Origin: Escherichia coli
Lineage (GTDB): Bacteria > Pseudomonadota > Gammaproteobacteria > Enterobacterales > Enterobacteriaceae
Direction: 5' to 3' (one strand)
DNA length: 317 nucleotides
Assembly: GCF_003334255.1 (NCBI RefSeq)
Contig: NZ_QOWU01000264.1
Position numbers and translations under genes: made by a program. Position 1 is the first letter of the stretch. Each line of letters opens with the position of its first letter. Below are positions 129-317 of this stretch, piece after piece. The notes beneath the pieces were generated by a model that worked only from the letters and a program-made list of their open reading frames with translations, made no database searches and was not told where the DNA came from.

Positions 129-190
129 TGACGATGCAGAAGCAACTGGAAGGGGCGCAGGAATATATCCGTACTCAGTGCATTAAGTAG
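1..190 (+). CDS. Rz: Rz-type i-spanin (inner-membrane spanin subunit), C-terminal portion; 5'-partial, gene starts upstream of the window
   Basis: Frame beginning at position 2 is open to TAG at 188-190. Hand translation: RINATCPGSVREAPTTSGVDNATGPRLADTAERDYFILRERLMTMQKQLEGAQEYIRTQCIK*. This closely matches the C-terminal region of phage lambda Rz as I recall it (motifs SVREA, SGVDNA, PRLADTAERDYF, LRERL, TMQKQLEG, QC near the C-terminus). Both cysteines known to be conserved in the lambda Rz periplasmic domain are present (codons 17-19 and 179-181). Identity recalled from memory, not searched. Confidence 0.9.
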   Translation, partial: RINATCPGSVREAPTTSGVDNATGPRLADTAERDYFILRERLMTMQKQLEGAQEYIRTQCIK

Positions 191-204
191 TCTTTTTATT
201 ATCC

Positions 205-210
205 GGAGGA
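205..210 (+). promoter_or_regulatory. Shine-Dalgarno / ribosome-binding site for the downstream ORF
   Basis: GGAGGA at 205-210, followed by a 3-nt spacer (tgt) and ATG at 214-216. Spacing is on the short side but acceptable. It lies in the 23-nt gap after the Rz stop. Confidence 0.6.
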
Positions 211-213
211 TGT

Positions 214-317
214 ATGAAGAAATTACTGGTAACCGTAAAACCTTTTCAGGGAACAATTCCGTTCCGTATTTTGCAGCGTGGTCGTGTTCTTGTTGAAGGT
301 TCGTTCAGTGGTAAATG
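214..317 (+). CDS. hypothetical protein, N-terminal portion; 3'-partial, runs off the window end
   Basis: ATG at 214 is preceded by the GGAGGA Shine-Dalgarno. The frame is open for 34 codons to the window end: MKKLLVTVKPFQGTIPFRILQRGRVLVEGSFSGK. MKK is a typical N-terminus. No hydrophobic stretch long enough for a signal peptide, and no lipobox Cys, so it is not Bor-like and is probably cytoplasmic. Same strand as Rz with no convincing terminator between them, so it is probably co-transcribed with the lysis genes. I do not recognise the product. Confidence 0.6.
   Translation, partial: MKKLLVTVKPFQGTIPFRILQRGRVLVEGSFSGK

Follow-up and report, generated by a model that had tools for sequence, protein, structure and literature searches.

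A 74-codon gene between Rz/Rz1 and cosN in Escherichia coli prophages: a conserved, probably accessory gene predicted to encode a small beta-sandwich protein

The stretch analysed here (the window) is 317 nucleotides (nt) of Escherichia coli DNA from contig NZ_QOWU01000264.1, in which position 1 is the first letter, and the element under study is the open reading frame (ORF) at 214-317 on the plus strand. It comprises the first 34 codons plus 2 nt of a gene of 74 codons that runs off the window and has its full end at the window-equivalent position 438. We propose, with a probability of about 0.55, that this is an expressed accessory gene, co-transcribed late in the phage cycle, and that its product is a small cytoplasmic beta-sandwich that acts as a binding or adaptor module; it would derive from a mobile two-gene module, one half of which stands alone here. 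That the ORF is a genuine protein-coding gene we regard as nearly certain. A function related to conflict, either between phage and host or between phages, is offered as a tentative suggestion.

The ATG at 214 is separated from the stop codon of Rz by a spacer of 23 nt, and this spacer carries a Shine-Dalgarno (SD) sequence, GGAGG, at 205-209 of the plus strand, 4 nt 5' of the start codon. Since an in-frame TAA lies at 184-186, ATG 214 is the first start codon available to the frame, which translates to MKKLLVTVKPFQGTIPFRILQRGRVLVEGSFSGK and stays open to the end of the window without a stop. The original prediction, made from the window, had been of an ORF on the same strand as Rz/Rz1 at the accessory position that follows them; that it is a real gene was borne out, and the coordinates, the 23-nt gap and the strong SD all proved correct. 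The DNA beyond the window was supplied by a prophage of E. coli STEC17-183 (NZ_CP075652.1; locus L001), which is 99.7% identical over the window, the sole difference being a synonymous AAA/AAG Lys codon. There the frame runs for 74 codons (6214-6438); the Prokaryotic Genome Annotation Pipeline (PGAP) labels the product 'hypothetical protein' (WP_000735655.1).

The DNA of the ORF was present in 1244 of 5426 complete E. coli genomes (~23%), in up to 6 copies, and an intact frame covering at least 80% of the query was found in 1189 genomes; in all of the E. coli rows listed, the PGAP annotation was again 'hypothetical protein'. The ratio of nonsynonymous to synonymous substitution rates (dN/dS) was calculated by the pairwise Nei-Gojobori method for five divergent alleles (10 pairs) and for larger sets. 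For nine of the ten pairs it was 0.27-0.51 in the frame of the ORF, compared with ~0.7-2.2 in the other two frames, and in the larger sets the median was 0.21 for the lineage of the window, which has no partner gene (see below), and 0.29 for relatives that have one. From 99 loci, 27 DNA alleles were obtained, nine of which encode an identical protein, and variable sites numbered 26, 26 and 39 at codon positions 1, 2 and 3, respectively. One common allele variant has an in-frame deletion of 9 nt. The SD (as GGAGG, GGGGG or GGAGA) and the ATG are kept in divergent loci, even where protein identity has fallen to ~65%, and homologues down to ~25% identity keep the same length and motif. These sequence comparisons indicate that the 74-codon gene is under purifying selection.

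In L001 the gene follows those for holin, lysozyme and Rz/Rz1, and its stop codon is followed by 260 nt of non-coding DNA and then by the 12-mer GGGCGGCGACCT (6698-6709), which we take to be the exact 12-nt cohesive-end sequence of lambda (cosN). This 12-mer sits 177 nt before the start of Nu1, the gene for the small terminase (6886-7434), which begins 450 nt 3' of the 74-codon gene. Since cosN and then Nu1 come downstream, the gene is not a terminase; no other gene follows it in the right arm of the virion chromosome, where it lies between Rz/Rz1 and cosN. In a consensus scan no sigma-70-like promoter was seen 5' of the ORF and no convincing terminator in the interval, a weak negative given that only consensus sequences were used, and the single terminator-like match lies inside the ORF, at chance level. 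A scan of the Rz-to-Nu1 interval against Rfam returned no RNA family. Since no promoter or terminator of its own was detected, the gene is most probably transcribed late, together with the lysis genes and in dependence on Q. Its own strong SD would serve to initiate translation, except in some alleles, where translation would be coupled to that of Rz. In L002 (5214-5217) and L008 (5001-5004), in the region equivalent to window 188-217, the Rz stop codon TAG has become CAG or CCG, and Rz ends in an ATGA overlap with the ORF, which suggests translational coupling.

The AlphaFold2 model of the 74-amino-acid (aa) protein, built with an alignment of 27 sequences, is all-beta, with seven strands and one short helix (predicted local distance difference test (pLDDT) 90.3; predicted template modelling score (pTM) 0.76), so the protein is confidently modelled as a seven-strand beta-sandwich, in agreement with the beta-rich fold that had been guessed from its hydrophobic runs. 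Residues 2-8 form beta-strand 1 and belong to a segment with a pLDDT of 93. Neither a signal peptide nor a lipobox was found in the 74-aa protein, as had been supposed from its visible N-terminus. Since it has no hydrophobic h-region and no Cys before residue 35, we predict that it is cytoplasmic and not a lipoprotein. There are four cysteines in the lineage of the window, and these are not conserved in the wider family. Among the conserved residues are Q21, G33-K34 and Y43, which would together form a surface.

Searches of Pfam, NCBIfam and PADLOC returned nothing for the 74-aa protein (with Pfam, none even at E<=10), in line with the original reading that it matched nothing identifiable, and the same searches gave no matches for a 286-aa long form or for a distant member. 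Sequence searches of the PDB with the broad-family profile (A2), the long form and the partner found nothing meaningful. The one match was to the PHROG 2571 profile, at positions 100-172 of 291 (E 2.8e-28, 99.9 bits), and the distant small relatives match this profile as well. The long form, which covers profile positions 1-291, is the 286-aa XSB42772.1 of Escherichia phage PhiR46_1 (L011 3701-4561), and has an N-terminal coiled coil, then the beta domain and then, towards the C-terminus, a domain of ~110 aa without known relatives; a single-sequence AlphaFold2 model of it (pLDDT 39) was too poor and was not used. Its gene is also found between Rz and Nu1, where it adjoins a nucleoside 2-deoxyribosyltransferase-like gene. 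By tblastn the two proteins are 34% identical over residues 2-54, and they share the motifs L-V-T, F-x-V-x-Q-G-R-V-L and Y-x-V-D-A. Unlike XSB42772.1, the 74-aa protein has neither the coiled coil nor the C-terminal domain and so does not share the full-length architecture; it is the central domain of the ~286-aa PHROG 2571 proteins in free-standing form. An exhaustive profile search recovered 49 cluster representatives, mostly of 72-81 aa, the small members coming from Escherichia, Salmonella, Yersinia, Xenorhabdus, Providencia, Yokenella and Klebsiella. A few members are fusions to other, uncharacterised PHROG families, and every source labels the members hypothetical; small proteins and fusions alike, this broader family belongs to Enterobacterales. 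Profile matches to two giant repeat proteins, P0086 (2764 aa, 19 matched stretches) and P0102 (394 aa), were not taken as homology. Both score through the repeat 'Q-x-D-G-K-V-L-V-G-G-x-F', and the matches are probably a chance resemblance of the motif 'Q-x-G-R-V-L-V-E-G-x-F' to beta-propeller blade repeats.

The surroundings of the gene were compared in 80 IMG/VR loci that encode a protein 96-100% identical to that of the window. Among the loci that extend far enough upstream, Rz directly precedes the gene almost throughout (the gap is larger in three), and the identity of Rz ranges from 63% to 99%. The downstream region varies: it holds cos and Nu1 at +450, or a TonB_C-type lipoprotein, DUF3950, HNH and an HK97-type terminase, or other genes. 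Furthermore, a 100%-identical protein was found together with two unrelated packaging modules, one lambda-type (Nu1/gpA) and one HK97-type (HNH, Terminase_2/TerL). Bases 1-181 of the window, which belong to Rz, match 380 phage records, of which 25 continue into the ORF, and phage 1720a-02 has the same Rz end with the gene absent. Presence therefore varies among phages that share the same Rz end, the comparison that had been proposed as a check on the gene. DNA homology to the more distant, partner-bearing alleles ends at the stop codon of the ORF. Distant members of the family are found after non-homologous spanins, between the Q antiterminator and holin, after Ail/Lom-type genes and, in Yersinia, beside a region with a CI-like repressor, a kinase and ParDE. 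The guanine-plus-cytosine (GC) content of the gene is ~45%, lower than that of the adjacent Rz (55-60%), and the gene is carried by Stx1a-, Stx2a- and Stx2c-converting phages.

Since its sites are varied, its presence is variable and its homology ends at the stop codon, we interpret the gene as a mobile accessory unit and not as part of the core lysis or packaging functions, and we hold its non-core accessory status with good confidence. Hypothetical and moron genes are known to be plentiful in the late regions of lambdoid and Stx phages (PMC3430580, PMC2629481), and the accessory behaviour described above fits the published accounts of late-region morons (PMC2629481, PMC3430580). To find such a gene at the accessory hotspot after Rz is ordinary.

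A second gene frequently accompanies the beta-domain gene. In Salmonella, Yokenella and metagenomic loci, a gene for a protein of 68-73 aa (PHROG 4280) lies 40-80 nt 3' of the beta gene. Partner genes were located in L003 (5265-5471), L012 (6305-6511), L018 (449-670) and L104 (5319-5534), and near position 3001 in L106-L185. The invariant residues of this partner are DPDN-GWVLGW, PW-LVGVYA and YGSHRLGSDDF. Pfam, NCBIfam and PADLOC gave nothing for it except a weak match to DUF7457 (E 0.002), and one source labels a member of the partner family DUF2188. In a search anchored on the partner, a beta-domain gene was found 38-82 nt upstream on the same strand in 63 of 80 viral loci, and the outer neighbours of the cassette belonged to many unrelated clusters. 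In high-GC Pseudomonas-like phages the partner and a lipoprotein gene are inserted between tail genes K and I (at about 2500-3500 in L170, L171, L175, L179-L181, L184 and L185), and a convergent ORF of 83-90 aa beside the partner shows remote homology to the beta family (hhalign probability 89.5%, E 2e-6). The partner family as a whole extends across Enterobacterales, Pseudomonas, Burkholderia and Vreelandella. Since the two genes are paired in 63 of 80 loci, yet the lineage of the window is without the partner and L121 has the partner without a beta gene (2457-3210, directly after Rz/Rz1), they are strongly linked yet separable, and the lineage of the window has lost the partner. It is conceivable, and we put it forward as a rather doubtful proposal, that the PHROG 2571 domain and PHROG 4280 form a two-gene accessory system new to description, which occupies cargo sites in temperate siphophages ranging from those of Enterobacterales to those of Pseudomonas and Burkholderia and whose beta component has become autonomous in the lineage of the window. 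One example of what it might be is a new module for counter-defence or superinfection exclusion.

The mechanism that we favour is that the 74-residue seven-strand beta-sandwich, made in the cytoplasm, would serve as the binding or adaptor module of a dispensable accessory function exerted during lytic growth. We propose this role because the domain moves among cargo sites, is fused to varied domains and is usually paired with PHROG 4280. Conflict between phage and host, or between phages, would be the likeliest arena, rather than lysis or packaging in themselves, and in the lineage of the window the beta protein would work without its partner.

The closest known systems bear on this proposal in different ways. 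The late cargo of Stx phages (stx, nanS-p) and morons resemble the 74-codon gene in lying in a Q-dependent late region, in being dispensable as judged by distribution, in moving as a discrete unit and in having a lower GC content, and variable presence between homologous neighbours, by which morons are recognised, was likewise observed here; the difference is that no promoter or terminator of its own was detected for the 74-codon gene. The earlier suggestion of a moron or cargo gene is thus borne out as far as variable presence is concerned but not as to an own promoter and terminator, and the defence or virulence role that it included is conjecture. Bor of lambda, which is a serum-resistance lipoprotein with a signal peptide and lipobox, is encoded on the opposite strand and expressed in lysogens. 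Its gene, too, lies in the accessory slot between Rz and cos, and not every lambdoid phage has it, whereas the 74-codon gene is on the same strand and without lipobox, own promoter or Pfam match, so bor is a positional analogue only. Identity with the Bor lipoprotein was rejected on the position of the first Cys (residue 35), the N-terminus being a buried beta-strand, and the absence of a Pfam match at E<=10. Small beta-sandwich modules, namely carbohydrate-binding modules (CBM6/35/36), the PNGase F domain, the lambda J domain and PBSX XepA, are also among the closest known systems. Type II toxin-antitoxin pairs were considered in view of the co-oriented genes 38-82 nt apart; there was no match to a toxin or antitoxin family, the partner giving only the weak DUF7457 hit; the high-GC pair is convergent, unlike a toxin-antitoxin pair, and the locus of the window has no partner gene. 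No PADLOC-DB 2.0 defence model matched the 74-aa protein, the long form, the distant member or the partner.

Several observations weigh against the favoured proposal. We infer the binding and conflict steps, and neither sequence nor structure searches yielded a functional homologue of the 74-aa protein; in the literature we found no paper mentioning it, nor any expression or phenotype data. Anti-defence genes are usually expressed early, not late. The own promoter and terminator of the classical moron definition were not seen in the consensus scan, and the model of the fold was built on a shallow alignment of 27 related sequences. In the lineage of the window the gene is tied to the 3' end of Rz, which could mean a lysis-linked role instead, and no trace of the partner was found in ~80 near-identical loci or in the flanks of L001. 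Lastly, L001 and L008 differ in the ORF by 16 nonsynonymous and 2 synonymous changes, and when L001 6214-6633 is aligned with L008 5001-5420 the divergence of the ORF equals that of the 195-nt shared non-coding flank. The comparison of L001 with L002 gives the opposite pattern, the ORF being ~17% divergent and the flank ~3%. The excess of nonsynonymous changes between L001 and L008 could reflect local relaxation or diversifying selection.

The comparison of L001 with L008, together with the missing partner, is what would be expected if the gene were a decaying relic, that is, the surviving half of a two-gene cassette which lost its function when the partner was deleted and now hitch-hikes between the end of Rz and cos. 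The 5'-truncated partner in L005-L007 and the existence of frameshifted or partial variants, such as P0017, are consistent with such decay. However, the frame is intact over at least 80% of the query in 1189 genomes, nine synonymous alleles encode an identical protein, the SD is conserved and the median dN/dS of the partner-less lineage (0.21) is not above that of the paired relatives (0.29). The solo partner of L121 is the reverse case, so either half may function alone. We therefore consider a relic unlikely, though it is the best placed of the alternatives.

Somewhat less probable again is an accessory role within the lysis module, in which the protein would modulate the spanin or holin step, for example the timing of lysis. 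This would account for the coupling to Rz, since the gene comes right after Rz in essentially every locus of the lineage despite Rz identities of 63%-99%, the Rz stop is mutated to give the ATGA stop/start overlap in L002 and L008, and relatives follow non-homologous spanins too. The spanins act in the periplasm, whereas the protein is predicted to be cytoplasmic; moreover, most phages whose Rz end is ~93% identical do not have the gene, and distant members are found upstream of holin, in early regions or among tail genes.

We also regard as improbable, a little more so than a lysis role, that the protein, which has no secretion signal, is an extracellular binder freed by phage lysis, whose CBM- or lectin-like sandwich would recognise a carbohydrate or surface ligand. 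Its parallels would be two products of these prophages that have no secretion signal either, the Stx toxin and the NanS-p esterase. In favour are the place of the gene, which closes the lysis cassette in Stx-converting phages with a SASA-type esterase, and the four cysteines of this lineage. Against this, the wider family does not keep the cysteines, we identified no ligand-binding motif and the distant members occur in early or immunity regions.

A packaging or cos accessory factor, or a small terminase as the original prediction had allowed, is suggested by the position of the gene 260 nt before cosN and 450 nt before Nu1, but is largely refuted and very improbable, since neither Pfam nor NCBIfam gave a terminase (Nu1/Terminase_2) or DNA-binding family match, a separate and complete Nu1 or Terminase_2 gene lies downstream and the 100%-identical protein travels with two unrelated packaging systems. 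A chance ORF or non-coding element, to which the short length, the missing Pfam match and the lack of annotation in several GenBank phage records might have pointed, is refuted by the frame-specific dN/dS signal, the greater variation at third codon positions (26, 26, 39), the retention of length and motif in homologues to ~25% identity, the confident AlphaFold2 model and the lack of an Rfam match.

The gene is already catalogued (RefSeq WP_000735655.1, UniRef A0A0D6ZJZ6, PHROG 2571). The earlier description of the ORF as unrecognised therefore holds for the several GenBank phage records that leave it unannotated, and not for PGAP or PHROG, where it is a hypothetical protein and a member of PHROG 2571. 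As it stands the gene matters little, as a further conserved hypothetical in the accessory zone of lambdoid and Stx prophages; its only unusual aspects are the conserved pairing with PHROG 4280 and the fact that no structural relative was found. It has modest value as a very common E. coli gene under apparent purifying selection that belongs to a widespread phage module with a usual partner. If the module does act in phage-host or phage-phage conflict, it would add a small-protein system to those known and account for a feature that recurs in the prophages of Shiga toxin-producing E. coli.

The remaining features of the window belong to the spanin genes. The 3' end of Rz (i-spanin) occupies 1-190 of the plus strand, comprising the last 63 codons with the stop TAG at 188-190, and forms the 5' boundary of the module as its upstream neighbour. 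The 3' part of Rz1 (o-spanin) is embedded in the +1 frame of Rz at 1-128 of the same strand, with its stop at 126-128. In L001, Rz (5717/5732-6190) is annotated 'lysis protein', homologous loci giving a match to PF03245, and Rz1 (5943-6128) encodes 61 aa with the lipobox LVVSAC and a proline-rich tail. Further upstream in the lysis cassette of L001, at 3873-4590, the annotation shows a DUF1327 gene as a truncated pseudogene and, after it, a hypothetical gene on the opposite strand, an arrangement that suggests an insertion or rearrangement between holin and lysozyme. Within the window, an out-of-frame ORF at 210-296 (ATG 210, 28 aa) overlaps the 74-codon gene and touches the SD; no support was found for it. 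The N-terminus of the P0017 variant, RVNRRTFSGNNSVPY at residues 5-19, resembles the product of this alternative frame, and P0017 is either a double-frameshift allele or a sequencing error.
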